Shown here: piece after piece, positions 13,554-18,181 of the stretch
Layout of the letters: each line of letters opens with the position of its first letter
How positions within the stretch are numbered: position 1 is the stretch's first letter
Assembly (NCBI GenBank): GCA_030668875.1
Contig: DAOVER010000029.1
Span: 1-32,000, forward strand
DNA length: 32,000 bases
Direction: 5' to 3'
DNA from: Candidatus Heimdallarchaeota archaeon
Lineage (GTDB): Archaea; Asgardarchaeota; Heimdallarchaeia; Heimdallarchaeales; Heimdallarchaeaceae
Made by a program: the position numbers and the translations under genes
Notes under the pieces: generated by a model
What the model saw: the letters and a program-made list of their open reading frames with translations, nothing else
Database searches by the model: none
What the model was told of the DNA's origin: nothing

Positions 13554-13703
13554 ATTCATACTATTTTCGAGAGAACTTGATTCATATCTTCAATTAAACC
13601 ATCGATGATTCCTCATTTCTTACTTTTTAAGATTTTCAGAAATATGATAAGTATAATAAATAAATGCGAGGGTATTTAAATTGGAAAAATAAATAATTAA
13701 TCA

Positions 13704-14732
13704 ATGACGGATAGAAAAAAGAAACAAGTTAATTTTTTGGACAAAGTACTTGGATCTGTAACAAAGGAGGGAGGAGGTGGAGTATTTATCGCATTTGGAG
13801 AAGAAGAATCGAAACGATTACGTTCAGAACAAAGAAAAACTTATGGAGATTCTGGATTAAAAATTGGCTCTATGCTCACATACAAAATTGATGACTATAT
13901 AGCAATAATTGAAGGAGAACTAAAGAATAATACACTTGAAGATGAAGAGAGATCTGCAAAAACAGAGACCCTATTATTTGCTACTAACATCAAAGTTTCC
14001 TTACAAAGCTTGAATATTTCAGACATTCAAATTCAAGAAGTTAACAATGAACTAAGATTATCATTTGATTCTTTAGTTCAGAACAAATATCCCTTCTTCT
14101 TACAGTTTTTTATCAGATATGAACGAGATGGAAGTATAGTTCTAGATGGTTTATTCAAGAAAATTCAACCCTTTAAAGTTTCAATAAGATCTTTTGGGGA
14201 TGAAGCTAAGAAAGAAAATCAAGACAGTTTTGAAAATCTTAATTCTCTATACATTATAAATTCTAATGATGATTTGCTTGTTAAATTTTTAAACCAGAAT
14301 CCAAGAATAACTCAGAAATTAATTGCTTTATCTTCAAATCTTGAGCTAATCATGATTAATCGGAAATACTTTGTTGTAACATTTTACGATGCTAATTCTG
14401 TTATCAAAGTTATTGATTTACTAGGAGAACTCTATAATGAGTTTGTGATACAAAAAACTGGTTTGAAATCTGTAACTTACATCAAATGTTTCAATTGTGG
14501 AGAGGAGCTTGATGAAAATGACGAGAAATGTCCTAACTGTAATGCTAATAGACCTAGATGTGCTGTCTGTCTGTTAGACTTACAACTTGCTGAAAAAGAA
14601 GAAGTTGTTCAAATGCCTTGTTGTGGAGTTTATGGACATAGGGAACACGTTCTGATGTGGGTTGAAAGAGCTCATACTTGTCCAAATTGTAAATCAAGAC
14701 AGATTGATTGGTTGGATGAGTTAAATCGTTAA
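13704..14732 (+). CDS. Zinc-ribbon plus RING-finger protein (candidate E3 ligase or scaffold)
   Basis: C-terminal CFNC-x10-CPNC-x6-CAVC...PCC-x4-HREH-x3-W-x6-CPNC. Confidence 0.85.
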   Translation: MTDRKKKQVNFLDKVLGSVTKEGGGGVFIAFGEEESKRLRSEQRKTYGDSGLKIGSMLTYKIDDYIAIIEGELKNNTLEDEERSAKTETLLFATNIKVSLQSLNISDIQIQEVNNELRLSFDSLVQNKYPFFLQFFIRYERDGSIVLDGLFKKIQPFKVSIRSFGDEAKKENQDSFENLNSLYIINSNDDLLVKFLNQNPRITQKLIALSSNLELIMINRKYFVVTFYDANSVIKVIDLLGELYNEFVIQKTGLKSVTYIKCFNCGEELDENDEKCPNCNANRPRCAVCLLDLQLAEKEEVVQMPCCGVYGHREHVLMWVERAHTCPNCKSRQIDWLDELNR

Positions 14733-14875
14733 GTTTAGCGCACCTAGTGAGAATCTGATAATAGATAATTGGGTTCAAGGGATGAAAATTATTGCTACTT
14801 CAATTCATACTTTCTAATTTTTTTAAAGTTGAGAGAGCAAATTCTTTTTTAGTAAGTTATATATAACATCACTTG

Positions 14876-16267
14876 ATGTGTGATACAGTTGTTGCTGTTG
14901 GTAAGTCTACCAAAGATGGTAGTGTTATTTTAGGTAAAAATTCAAATCGTGTTCCTAATGAGGTTCATAATGTTGAATATGTTGAAGGGAAAAAACATGG
15001 AGCTAATGCTAATGTCAAATGTACTTATATCACAATCCCCCAAGTAAAAGAAACATATGATGTTCTTCTACTGAAACCATTCTGGATATTTGGTTGTGAA
15101 ATGGGTAGTAATGAGTTTGGTGTAACTATCGGTAATGAAGCCGTTTGGAGCAAGGAACCCATACGCGATACAGGTTTGCTTGGTATGGATATGATGCGCT
15201 TAGCATTAGAGAGATCAAAAACTGCAAAAAAAGCCCTTGAAATAATAGCAGAGTTACTGGAGAAGTATGGTCAAGGTGGTCAATGTACTTATGGTGTTAA
15301 AGGTCGTGATTACCATAATTCTTTCATAATTGCTGATACAAAAGAAGCTTGGATTTTGGAAACAGCTGATAGATTTTGGATAGCTGAGAAAGTGAAAGGA
15401 ATACGTACAATTTCAAACACTCTTTCGATAGGTAGTGATTATGACTTAATTCATCCAGAGTTAATAGACCATGCAATCAAGAAAGGTTATTGTAAGAGTA
15501 AAGATGACTTCCATTTTGCTAATAATTTCATACCCAAATTCCGTATATATCATGCTATAAAAGAGTCTCAACCTAGATCGCAATATTTTGCAAAGGGCTC
15601 TGATCGACAACAATGTACTACAGCTCTTCTCTTAAGAAACAAGGGTAAGATAACTCCAGAAGACGTTATGGAAGTTCTTAGAAATCACAATCTCAAACCA
15701 GAAGAAGAAGCTACTTGGTCTGCATCAAAAGCTTCAGCTAAGAGTCCTTGTCAACACGCAACTGGTATGACAGTACCTAGTCAGTCAACTGGGTCTATCG
15801 TCTCTCACCTGAAAAAAGTCATCCAAGTTCACTGGGTAACCGGTACATCAGGCCCATGTACAAGCACCTTTAAACCTGTATTCTTACCTAAAGTAGGATT
15901 CAGTAAAAAACCTATCCTGGGAGATGAAAAGTACAATGAAAAAGCTCTCTGGTGGCAACATGAAAAACTTCACAGATTGGTTCTTTTAGACTATCAGAAA
16001 AGGTTAGGAACATACAAAGAAGATCGAGACAAATTTGAGAAAAAATATGTTAAAAAAGTAAACACAATTCTCAAAGGTTTATCAGGAAAACCAACAAAAG
16101 CTGATTTAACAAAAATGAAGAAGGTTACAACAGATTCGTTTAAGGAAAGTCAAAAGTTAACTGATGAATGGATTAATAATATAGTAGATCTTCCAATTGA
16201 AACAAGTACAGGTGTACTTTATCGAAGATTCTGGAATAAATATAACAAAGTTGATGGTTTAAAATAG
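14876..16267 (+). CDS. Peptidase C69/secernin-like Ntn-hydrolase dipeptidase
   Basis: MCDT N-terminus (Cys2 nucleophile; ATG 14876 rather than TTG 14873), GKNSNR, WIFGCEMGSNEFGVTIGNEAV, LLGMDMMRLALER, YHNSFIIAD. Confidence 0.9.
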   Translation: MCDTVVAVGKSTKDGSVILGKNSNRVPNEVHNVEYVEGKKHGANANVKCTYITIPQVKETYDVLLLKPFWIFGCEMGSNEFGVTIGNEAVWSKEPIRDTGLLGMDMMRLALERSKTAKKALEIIAELLEKYGQGGQCTYGVKGRDYHNSFIIADTKEAWILETADRFWIAEKVKGIRTISNTLSIGSDYDLIHPELIDHAIKKGYCKSKDDFHFANNFIPKFRIYHAIKESQPRSQYFAKGSDRQQCTTALLLRNKGKITPEDVMEVLRNHNLKPEEEATWSASKASAKSPCQHATGMTVPSQSTGSIVSHLKKVIQVHWVTGTSGPCTSTFKPVFLPKVGFSKKPILGDEKYNEKALWWQHEKLHRLVLLDYQKRLGTYKEDRDKFEKKYVKKVNTILKGLSGKPTKADLTKMKKVTTDSFKESQKLTDEWINNIVDLPIETSTGVLYRRFWNKYNKVDGLK

Positions 16268-16429: not shown

Positions 16430-18181
16430 ATGAAAGAGAGTATCAAAAAGTTTTTAGAAAAAGAATATCTCGAAACTATACGAATTCATCAACTTCGTCC
16501 GCTATTTGAGAGGTATTTAAACTTAAATTCTGATTTAGTTGAAAAATATGAAAAAGAATATTCTCGTCCCAAAAATTTGATAGTATCTGCTCTATATACA
16601 GCTGATTATATTATAATGTCGTCGGAAGTGAAACTTGAACTTGAAGATGATGCTAGAAGGAAAGAAATAATCGAATTCTGGATAAACCTGAATATAACTA
16701 ATGATGAAATGTGGTACGAATTAACTTACATTGTAGCTTTTTCATATAGAATTGCTTCGATGCTTAGGAAACGTTACTATTATTTAATGGATAGAGGAGT
16801 TGCTAAGCAAATTGCAGCAGCATTGGTAGCTGATTACTTTGTTCGACACCACTTGGAATACACTTCTGACAAATTGAATATCATTCCAACTTGGTGGGTT
16901 GTTTTTCTAATGGAAACAGCTATGTGCCAAACAATATTTTCCACAACTCAAAAGAAGTGGGCTAACATCCAAGAAATACTCCACTCTAATGAAATGGGTT
17001 TATTATCACACATAATTGCAAATAACTTCATAGGGGAAACTATAGGGGAACCCAATCCAGCTGTCCCCATACCATACTTCAAAGATTCTTCTATTTTCTA
17101 CTATGCCACATGGGTTCAAGACACAGTTAAAAAGAATCGATTTGAATCACTGTTACCTGCTAAGACTTCAGCACAAATTCATAAGGAGTTCAAGAAATGT
17201 ACTCCGTTATTGGATTCAAATAATCCACACATCTTAAAATACATGAGACTTGCAGGAAAATACTCGATTTCTTCTCCTGAGATAAATTTCATTATTGCAA
17301 ATTCCCAAATTAATGATGCTGAAGGTTGGATTGGATTGCTTACACCTTTAGATGATATCAATATGAAGGAAATAGAATCCCTATTAAAACTTAAACTAGA
17401 TGATCTGAAAGCTCTTGAAAAATATGCAAAACATCTCCCAACTATTCAAGTTCTTCAGAGGCAAAAGGAAGAACGAGAAGTAGTTGAAGAGATAATAGAA
17501 AAAGAAGAGAAAAAAGGATTCTTCAAAAAGCTATTTTCAGGTTTTAAAAAGAAGAAGAAAAAAGCAGAGCCGAAGAAAGCTGTAAAAATACCACAATCAA
17601 TAGATAAGTGGTATCGATTGGTTTTAGATGAAATACTCATTGCCAGCGTTTCTGGTATAGGACTAGGGTTAGAGATTTATGATTCATATCGTGAGGATAA
17701 TTTCGTAATTAGTGGATTAATTGAGTCGGAACAAAAAGAAACTCAACCCACAGTTTTCTATTCAGAAGCGACTGTCGCATTCCCATCTGAATTTCTAGAT
17801 CCAATTATTAGCCTTATTGAAGTAGGTAAATTGTTTATAGCAACAATAAAAAATGTAGAAACGATTTCAGTTATTCCTGAAGAAGCGTTTTATCGTGATA
17901 AGCAAGATGTAGGTCTCTATAGACTTGTAGAATTTGTTTTCGGTGAAAAACTATTAGTTGGTATATTAGCAGAAAAACAAGCTAGAACAGCTATGACACT
18001 CGCAAGGTCAGAACCAACTTATCAGAGAAGATCACTTCAAAGAAAAGCTAACGAATTCGTACATGCGAGAAGAGTCAACAAAACTGACGACGTAGGTAAA
18101 AGAACACTTTCAAGAGAGATAAATTGGGATACTGTGAAATTAAGTTACGAGGAAAAACCATTGTTTTACAAGAAAAAATAG
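16430..18181 (+). CDS. Hypothetical protein (583 aa) with an internal amphipathic/polybasic motif
   Basis: Long uninterrupted ORF with no recognised family. Contains KKGFFKKLFSGFKKKKKK. Confidence 0.8.
   Translation: MKESIKKFLEKEYLETIRIHQLRPLFERYLNLNSDLVEKYEKEYSRPKNLIVSALYTADYIIMSSEVKLELEDDARRKEIIEFWINLNITNDEMWYELTYIVAFSYRIASMLRKRYYYLMDRGVAKQIAAALVADYFVRHHLEYTSDKLNIIPTWWVVFLMETAMCQTIFSTTQKKWANIQEILHSNEMGLLSHIIANNFIGETIGEPNPAVPIPYFKDSSIFYYATWVQDTVKKNRFESLLPAKTSAQIHKEFKKCTPLLDSNNPHILKYMRLAGKYSISSPEINFIIANSQINDAEGWIGLLTPLDDINMKEIESLLKLKLDDLKALEKYAKHLPTIQVLQRQKEEREVVEEIIEKEEKKGFFKKLFSGFKKKKKKAEPKKAVKIPQSIDKWYRLVLDEILIASVSGIGLGLEIYDSYREDNFVISGLIESEQKETQPTVFYSEATVAFPSEFLDPIISLIEVGKLFIATIKNVETISVIPEEAFYRDKQDVGLYRLVEFVFGEKLLVGILAEKQARTAMTLARSEPTYQRRSLQRKANEFVHARRVNKTDDVGKRTLSREINWDTVKLSYEEKPLFYKKK

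Follow-up and report, generated by a model that had tools for sequence, protein, structure and literature searches.

The stretch of DNA analyzed here, hereafter called the window, comprises positions 1 to 32,000 of contig DAOVER010000029.1 from a Candidatus Heimdallarchaeota archaeon (assembly GCA_030668875.1), and contains on its forward strand, at 13704-14732, an open reading frame (ORF) of 342 amino acids (aa), the product of which is probably a RING-type E3 ligase for ubiquitin or a ubiquitin-like protein. Three parts are proposed for this ligase. The first is a predicted disordered basic N-terminus; the second, an alpha/beta domain that resembles CCDC47 and TtfA in its predicted fold, most likely binds a client or partner; and the third, a C-terminal three-zinc cassette that consists of a zinc ribbon and a RING finger, may recruit an E2 charged with ubiquitin by the E1/E2/ubiquitin system that the genome encodes and is the presumed seat of the ligase activity. 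The features of the gene are as follows.

13704..14732, + strand: whole gene, putative RING-ligase family member without a membrane anchor (ORF and homologues).
13704..13868, + strand: residues 1-55, basic Gly-rich N-terminus (KKKQ, GGGG); predicted local distance difference test score (pLDDT) below 50 for residues 1-53.
13875..14453, + strand: residues 58-250, alpha/beta domain with a predicted CCDC47/TtfA-like fold (pLDDT approximately 85-95, fold matches).
14487..14540, + strand: C4 zinc ribbon, C262-x2-C265-x10-C276-x2-C279, invariant in alignments A1, A2, and A3.
14541..14558, + strand: six-residue ribbon-to-RING linker NANRPR, the Pro of which is residue 284 (cassette pattern, MIOS alignment).
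14559..14690, + strand: RING finger of the C4H2C2 type, C286-x2-C289, C306-C307, H312-x2-H315, C326-x2-C329 (zf-RING_2, conservation).
14703..14726, + strand: C-terminal helix, residues 334-341 (DWLDELNR), predicted to pack after the RING (model, conservation among homologues).

Bases 14487-14690, in which the initial annotation had placed a zinc-ribbon plus RING module resembling those of GATOR2 and SEACAT, run exactly from codon C262 through codon C329 when checked on the DNA, and the peptide strings quoted for this span are present in the translation of the ORF. The twelve Cys and His ligands are C262, C265, C276, and C279 in the ribbon and C286, C289, C306, C307, H312, H315, C326, and C329 in the RING, within which W319 also sits; between residue 258 and the C-terminus, they would be enough for three zinc sites. 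The putative zinc motif is a conserved feature and not a chance cluster of cysteines because all twelve ligands are invariant, both among 15 close homologues and among 42 family members down to approximately 20% identity. Among 112 diverse cassettes, 97 follow the pattern ribbon-x6-CxxC...(CC or CxxC)-x4-HxxH-x3-W-x6-CxxC; the cysteines before the His pair are CC in 62 of these 97, as in the 342-aa protein, and CxxC in 34. The linker between the ribbon and the RING is six residues long in 96 of the 97, and the proline corresponding to P284 is present in 80 of the 112. Judged from the sequence, eight putative cross-brace ligands are found at RING spacing, and since the ligand-4 His of RING-H2 fingers occurs in only one of the 97 pattern-matching cassettes, the finger may be described as a C4H2C2 variant with an adjacent pair of cysteines. 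Regarding the ribbon, the Pfam matches to Zn_ribbon_3 and Zn_Ribbon_1 were below threshold. Beyond the RING, W336 and L340 of the C-terminal helix are invariant among the close homologues.

The assignment of the second half of the cassette as a RING is based on profile and structural comparisons. The isolated module exceeded the cut-off of zf-RING_2 (PF13639, 27.3 bits) with 31.1 and 31.4 bits for residues 255-342 and 252-342, respectively, and this family matched all 112 cassettes at E <= 0.01. Prok-RING_1 (PF14446) matched 39 of the 112, with a best E value of 6.8e-9, while the 342-aa protein scored only 12.6 bits. When a profile of the 112 cassettes (A2) was searched against PDB sequences, RING-H2 ligases (EL5 and Arkadia-type) occupied the top of the list at 36-39 bits (E 5e-9 to 1e-7), aligned with the RING half only; EL5, at 39 bits, shared 38% identity over 55 residues with the module at a root-mean-square deviation (rmsd) of 2.2. 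The RINGs of RNF38, RNF165, and EL5 together gave rmsd values of 1.7-2.4 over 49-61 residues, with 1.7 for RNF165. At E2-contact positions assigned from established RING-E2 structures, the presumed contact residues of the 342-aa protein are V288, W319, P327, and K330, and conservation across the 112 cassettes is high for C-x-[VI]-C (110), the Trp (105), and C-P-x-C (111).

The 3.2-Mb assembly encodes four E2s of the UQ_con family and two ubiquitins. The cluster at C80:1251-7858 contains genes for gelsolin (on the minus strand), a UQ_con E2, a JAB/MPN deubiquitinase, a 370-aa protein with a C-terminus that matches the RING profile, a ubiquitin-like protein of 128 aa, and a ThiF-type E1, in addition to two unknown ORFs. 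With E1, E2, and ubiquitin genes present in the assembly, a ubiquitylation cascade is available. The reconstitution of an archaeal cascade of E1, E2, and a small RING has been reported for Caldiarchaeum (PMC5654768) and serves as a precedent.

Several observations weigh against a ligase or give it little support. The complex predicted for the module with the canonical E2 from contig C68 gave weak support, with an ipSAE of 0.46, compared with 0.20 for the best control. Of 80 solved complexes, 58 passed the same mark, as did 2 of 110 mismatched pairs; only 7 of the 80 passed it with values of 0.60 or lower, which was also the case for both mismatches. At least 94% of the contacts agreed between runs, and the pLDDT of the partner was at least 90; the pass may reflect the memory of solved RING-E2 pairs. 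The full-length protein scored 25.5 bits for zf-RING_2, which is just under the cut-off, and the linchpin Lys or Arg after the last Cys is present in 58 of the 112 cassettes, namely, approximately half. The ligands are also non-canonical in that the predicted fourth RING ligand, C306, directly abuts C307, and the His at ligand 4 of RING-H2 is missing. Furthermore, no ubiquitin-system gene adjoins the 342-aa gene, the neighbors of which encode TBP, MTAP, and a C69 peptidase, and its closest whole-module relatives with structures (GATOR2, SEAC, and IFT-A) use these domains mainly structurally.

Regarding the alpha/beta domain, two AlphaFold models were available, the first with a pLDDT of 61 and a better one from a deeper alignment with a pLDDT of 77.5 (82-91 for the module). 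In VIA-align comparisons, residues 58-250 matched 7tut_4 at Z 11.3 (167 aligned residues, rmsd 3.8), 9i78_4 at Z 9.4, and TtfA (6t84) at Z 9.3; the rows for this fold had Z scores of 11.3, 11.0, 10.1, 9.4, and 9.3 over 148-167 residues, and the next unrelated rows had scores of 6.4 or lower. The best matches were to residues 145-400 of a translocon chain in 7TUT, 7TM3, and 6W6L (Z 10.1-11.3), and its fungal counterpart is in 9I78. Foldseek matched the domain to mycobacterial TtfA (E 1e-4, probability 1.0), and the Atlas search returned clusters annotated as CCDC47 (PF07946) and TtfA (PF28092). CCDC47 has a globular cytosolic domain (PMC7505659), and from this description, the residue range of 145-400, and the Atlas annotation, we infer that chains 7tut_4, 6w6l_7, and 9i78_4 are CCDC47. 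Residues 58-250 are accordingly assigned a predicted CCDC47/TtfA-like fold, the matches to which cover most of the domain.

No sequence match was found for this domain in Pfam searches with 39 family members at E <= 1 or in a profile search against PDB sequences at E <= 10, and sequence membership of PF07946 or PF28092 was rejected because none of the 39 members had a Pfam match. All scores were below 0.9 in a language-model look-up of the domain in the Atlas, and a literature search found no paper treating CCDC47 together with TtfA. This fold also occurs widely among hypothetical proteins of bacteria, and, therefore, a link between Asgard archaea and eukaryotes cannot be drawn from the N-terminal domain. 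A Planctomycetota cluster in the Atlas (245 aa, with Prok-RING_1 in 77% of its members) aligns to residues 76-296; a similar N-terminal domain and a prokaryotic RING are predicted to occur together in this cluster, which extends the pairing beyond Asgard archaea.

Close homologues of the 342-aa protein (n = 18, 57-83% identity) come from assemblies named Candidatus Heimdallarchaeaceae or Heimdallarchaeota. When 1.84 billion representatives were searched with a profile, 243 matches were obtained at E <= 0.001. Approximately 45 of these are more distant full-length relatives, and in more than 100 the similarity is limited to approximately the last 80 residues. The named members of the cassette matches are from Asgard archaea, such as Freyarchaeum, and the sole eukaryotic protein among the best 150 of the 243 matches comes from a plant and contains eight RING-H2 fingers of the ordinary kind. 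In a sample of 150 genomes across the phylum, the cassette was present in 108, with up to 32 copies and in ORFs of 89 to 3558 aa; the genome of the window has six full cassettes, four of which are on the N-domain family. The module forms the C-terminus of PCI/winged-helix, Kelch plus PCI, HEAT plus PCI, beta-helix, DUF2341, Ig-like, TSP3, and Dna2-like proteins. The cassette is, thus, a common and mobile Asgard module, and its position at the C-terminus of many unrelated domains suggests that it behaves like effector modules.

Some of these cassette-bearing proteins are described here in their own right. A Dna2-like protein of 994 aa (C58:8764-11748) combines a Dna2/PD-(D/E)XK nuclease with an SF1 helicase (AAA_11/AAA_12) and has a RING finger at its C-terminal end (residues 940-985), such that a replication or repair nuclease-helicase is fused to a domain of the ubiquitin-ligase type. 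A 690-aa winged-helix-repeat protein (C36:27842-29917, minus strand) has the same ribbon-RING cassette at its end, and cassette-bearing ORFs of approximately 690-700 aa recur across many genomes of the phylum. P0165 (901 aa, on a short contig) consists of a Kelch beta-propeller, PCI, and ribbon-RING, and P0160 (654 aa) of HEAT repeats, PCI, and ribbon-RING. With a propeller or solenoid followed by a C-terminal cassette, these two are loosely reminiscent of a protocoatomer-like layout. This combination was not found in the two long cassette ORFs that were examined in the genome of the window, which encode the Dna2-like nuclease-helicase and the winged-helix repeat protein.

A profile of the N-terminal domain detected four paralogues in this genome, including the 342-aa protein, and all four carry the cassette. 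The other three (contigs C13, C85, and C22) have N-terminal transmembrane helices, as do 30 of 32 distant relatives in the alignment according to a hydropathy scan; the same scan revealed no transmembrane segment in the 342-aa protein, and its close orthologues also lack one. The region equivalent to residues 1-55 follows the transmembrane helices in the anchored relatives (alignment A3). Since the 342-aa protein has no anchor while its paralogues are anchored, it may be active as a cytosolic protein, or the paralogues may recruit it to the membrane. The domain was confined to one genus, being present in 8 of the 150 genomes, with 3-5 copies in most and some in tandem, and mean pairwise identity within the family was 20% for the N-terminal domain versus 50% for the cassette. 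The combination of N-terminal domain and cassette is a fast-evolving family that was seen in this genus only among the 150 genomes, and the difference in rate would be expected if a recognition domain that varies were coupled to a catalytic handle that stays constant. Tandem paralogues, two to three in each case, were noted in sister genomes at G068:C171:10981-13650, G115:C192:25317-28056, and G133:C11:103620-105681, and separate ORFs of approximately 200 aa in sister genomes, e.g., G115:C54:4234-4767, encode the N-terminal domain alone. These arrangements look like a lineage-specific expansion.

The resemblance to GATOR2 that had been noted for the module was examined at the levels of sequence and structure. 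In a phmmer search against PDB sequences, residues 258-335 aligned with the MIOS C-terminus (E 0.003), pairing PRCAVCL with PRCALCL and GHREHVLMW with GHAGHMLSW, and the ribbon with the CNFCG...CPGC ribbon of MIOS. The MIOS string quoted in the initial annotation is consistent with the PDB chain of MIOS in both the phmmer and profile alignments. For WDR24 and WDR59, to which the annotation ascribed GHxxHxxxW, the profile alignments (WDR24 717-773, WDR59 901-954) extend through the HxxHxxxW segment. The order and spacing of a GATOR2 tail (C4 ribbon, short linker, CxxC, CxxC-x4-HxxH-x3-W, and C-P) are found here, with CC replacing the second CxxC. Among solved chains, over the whole module (profile positions 5-83), only IFT144/WDR19 (32.8 bits), MIOS (29.9), WDR24 (29.5), Pirh2 (25.4), IFT122 (25.1), WDR59 (23.2), and part of Sea4 (23.8) matched profile A2. 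The IFT144 chains, which align over the same positions, scored 32.8 bits and 30.9 bits, with E values between 6e-7 and 2e-6, and four cassettes matched Pfam Zf_IFT144_1st. With a profile cut after HxxHxxxW (A5), MIOS was the best match (26.8 bits, E 3.9e-5, every ligand in register), followed by EL5 (26.0). The view that the order of elements is more specific than a generic RING match is supported by the whole-module matches but not by the RING half, which scored best on RING-H2.

Nearly all of the top 22 Foldseek matches of the first model were GATOR2 or SEAC chains, and the module of the better model again matched GATOR2/SEAC; these chains, thus, topped the Foldseek list for the module. VIA-align of the first model gave Z 7.7 for WDR24 715-790 (rmsd 2.6, 75 aligned residues), Z 7.5 for WDR59 898-974, and Z 5.9 for Sea4, with 32-33% identity over 72-74 residues; the best RING-H2 also reached Z 5.9. 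With the better model, WDR24 (Z 6.3, rmsd 6.2), IFT144 (5.8, 80 residues aligned), the RNF38 RING (5.8), and EL5 (5.2) were tied, and the IFT-A rmsd was 4.8-5.9. The structural advantage of GATOR2 and IFT-A is due to the extra ribbon and not to a closer RING. Preferential grouping with GATOR2 was absent from the RING part, for which RING-H2 fingers scored 36-39 bits and GATOR2/IFT-A tails 23-33 bits over a longer stretch.

The Pfam family of the Mios type, PF17034 (zinc_ribbon_16, gathering threshold 27 bits), was not reached: the isolated module scored 20.5-20.6 bits and the full protein 15.8, over positions 38-60 of 125 only, and the best score in its own genome was 16.5. Across the 150 phylum genomes, the cut-off was exceeded in one, by summed pieces only, and single matches were never above 22 bits. 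The check suggested against the Mios-type Pfam family, thus, came out negative, with PF17034 below the cut-off in the protein and in 149 of 150 genomes, and membership of the module in this family was rejected on these grounds. The statement that the module is attached to an unrelated alpha/beta domain holds, because neither WD40 nor solenoid appeared in the Pfam matches of the 342-aa protein or in the model, which has an alpha/beta domain of approximately 190 residues. As for the broader proposal of an Asgard relative of the TORC1-scaffold module, the tail layout and the GATOR2-topped Foldseek list remain in its favor, while PF17034, the equal standing of IFT-A, and the generic occurrence of the cassette in Asgard archaea do not. 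A nutrient-sensing or TORC1-like role of the 342-aa gene is not supported.

Many active RING E3s dimerize, and, therefore, a scaffold and a ligase are not mutually exclusive. A cassette that is mainly an oligomerization module, pairing with the cassettes of the anchored paralogues or with others and lacking ligase activity, appears to us rather unlikely, although structural pairing of cassettes is a live alternative. The sequence and fold matches to the whole module are tails that work by RING-RING heterodimerization or adaptor binding, the six cassettes of this genome include four on the same type of N-terminal domain, and an unanchored copy among anchored paralogues would fit recruitment by pairing. 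On the other hand, strong conservation of the E2-contact residues is unexpected for a purely structural RING, and active RING-H2 ligases are the group that the RING half resembles most; the IFT121 RING has been described as degenerate (IFT-A preprint). Less probable still is a zinc module unrelated to ubiquitin, PHD-like or treble-clef, that binds a protein, lipid, or nucleic-acid ligand and resembles a RING in its fold only. PHD-type C4HC3 fingers have a ligand spacing equivalent to CxxC-x4-HxxH, and this PHD-like spacing occurs in a third of the cassettes, which also show many weak zinc-ribbon and DZR matches in Pfam and are often fused to winged-helix/PCI proteins. However, no PHD family was among the most frequent Pfam matches of the 112 cassettes, in which zf-RING_2 (112/112) and Prok-RING_1 (39/112) were found, the Trp four residues past ligand 6 and C-P-x-C are RING features, and the structural matches among small domains were all RINGs or U-boxes bound to E2s. 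A PHD finger was rejected on the first two of these points.

We consider it highly improbable that the protein is, in the strict sense of the initial annotation, an Asgard protein related specifically to the GATOR2/SEACAT tail and belonging to a proto-TORC1-like sensing scaffold linked to Rag and longin proteins. Ligand order and spacing are as in MIOS, GATOR2/SEAC chains lead the Foldseek list of the module, and the identity with Sea4 speaks for such a relationship; against it stand the PF17034 scores here and in 149 of the 150 genomes, the lack of WD40 or solenoid, ligands for three zinc sites instead of the presumed four of a GATOR2 tail, and the equally good matches of IFT-A. Moreover, the first eukaryotic protein in the best 150 matches is a plant multi-RING-H2 ligase and not of the Mios type, and the N-domain family is restricted to one genus. 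A RING-type E3 ligase is, thus, the reading that we prefer for the 342-aa protein.

The gene neighbors TBP, MTAP, XPB, and Bax1 are archaeal. The TBP-side locus is kept by orthologues at 30-38% identity, and the paralogues sit elsewhere in unrelated contexts. Gene context was rejected as a functional clue because the order TBP-RING-(M20)-C69 recurs only at orthologous loci of one narrow clade. Downstream of the RING gene, 14873-16267 encodes a C69-family (secernin-like) peptidase and 16430-18181 a 583-aa protein with no Pfam match; relatives have an M20 peptidase gene between the RING and C69 genes, which is absent at this locus. Upstream, the 172-nt gap contains stops in all three frames, and, therefore, there is no hidden N-terminal extension; a missed membrane anchor or a wrong start was rejected for the same reason. 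The gap also contains the following element.

13673..13680, + strand: possible archaeal TATA box, TATTTAAA, 24-31 nt 5' of the ATG (read from the sequence).

If TATTTAAA is used, a leaderless or short-leader mRNA would be implied for the 342-aa gene.

RING ligases and ubiquitin systems are already known in Asgard archaea. Less documented is a very common three-zinc cassette in these archaea with the exact layout of the C-terminal domains of GATOR2/SEACAT and IFT-A. We found no paper in the searchable literature in which the RINGs of Asgard archaea are linked to the tails of GATOR2 or IFT-A; in a 2026 preprint on structural clusters shared by Asgard archaea and eukaryotes, RING E3 ligases are mentioned, whereas GATOR, IFT, and CCDC47 are not. 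If the cassette is the ancestor, a protocoatomer building block would pre-date the propeller-solenoid-RING architecture and would have existed as a free-standing shuffled module. In a more far-reaching and, as it stands, unlikely version of this idea, the Asgard cassette is the direct source of the ZnF-RING tails of GATOR2/SEACAT, IFT-A, and perhaps HOPS/CORVET and already pairs with other cassettes in Asgard archaea, such that the anchor-less protein would dock on its anchored paralogues and form a scaffold for ubiquitylation close to the membrane, with a client-binding domain of the CCDC47-like type at its center. The fusion of the cassette to a CCDC47/TtfA-like domain, which is normally membrane-proximal, hints at functions in membrane-protein surveillance or conflict. 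Being small and soluble, the 342-aa protein is suited to assays of zinc content, E2 binding, and dimerization.

Among known systems, the RING-H2 E3s (EL5, Arkadia/RNF165, RNF38, RNF126, and RNF24) match the RING half best and share its E2-contact positions. They are of the C3H2C3 type and lack a preceding zinc ribbon, whereas the cassette has one and, in place of the ligand-4 His, contains an additional Cys at -1 or -3, with His serving as ligand 6. Prok-RING_1 comprises RINGs of archaea and bacteria that are associated with ubiquitin-like systems of prokaryotes; in contrast to this family and the small RING of Caldiarchaeum, the 342-aa gene lies outside a ubiquitin operon, and its product carries a ribbon in addition to the RING, as well as a large N-terminal domain. 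In CCDC47 (PAT complex, multipass translocon of the endoplasmic reticulum), TtfA, and most members of the present family, the shared domain comes right after a membrane anchor. The 342-aa copy differs in having no transmembrane helix, and its N-terminal domain has only 8-11% identity to CCDC47 and TtfA.

The likeness to GATOR2/SEACAT (MIOS, WDR24, and WDR59, or Sea4, Sea2, and Sea3; PDB 7UHY, 9DX0, and 8ADL) lies in a ribbon placed directly before the RING and in the position of the module at the extreme C-terminus. MIOS and the 342-aa protein both have a six-residue linker ending in PR followed by C-A-x-C-L, and the GATOR2 RING pattern, CxxC-x4-HxxH-x3-W, is the CxxC form of the cassette. GATOR2 tails have a 10-residue insertion in the first RING loop that is missing from the cassette, and their final ligands are CP-x4-C-x-C instead of a plain C-P-x-C. 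A GATOR2 tail heterodimerizes with a partner tail through RING-RING contacts and is sandwiched by Seh1/Sec13; these tails serve as RING-RING junctions, while the cassette retains the E2-contact residues. If the GATOR2 complex has eight tails, as we assume, each would hold four zinc ions, compared with ligands for three in the module of the 342-aa protein. The GATOR2 model from which this number is derived carries 32 zinc ions (PMC12507694). The N-terminal architecture of GATOR2, a WD40 propeller with an alpha-solenoid, has no equivalent in the 342-aa protein.

The IFT-A subunits IFT144/WDR19 and IFT122 (PDB 8F5O, 8FGW/8FH3, and 8BBG) include the best whole-module profile matches of the solved chains; their tails are preceded by TPRs and a pair of WD40 propellers and provide surfaces for adaptors or assembly, with no link to ubiquitin. 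GATOR2, SEAC, and IFT-A use the ZnF-RING mainly for structural RING-RING or adaptor contacts (PMC9646525; IFT-A preprint), and the RINGs of IFT-A, COPI, HOPS/CORVET, and GATOR2 have been grouped together (IFT-A preprint). Since the matches to IFT-A are as good as those to GATOR2, the cassette is linked to tails of the protocoatomer type as a whole and not to TORC1 sensing. Taken together, the likeness in layout is real and specific enough to make the Asgard cassette a candidate for common descent with the protocoatomer-type tails.

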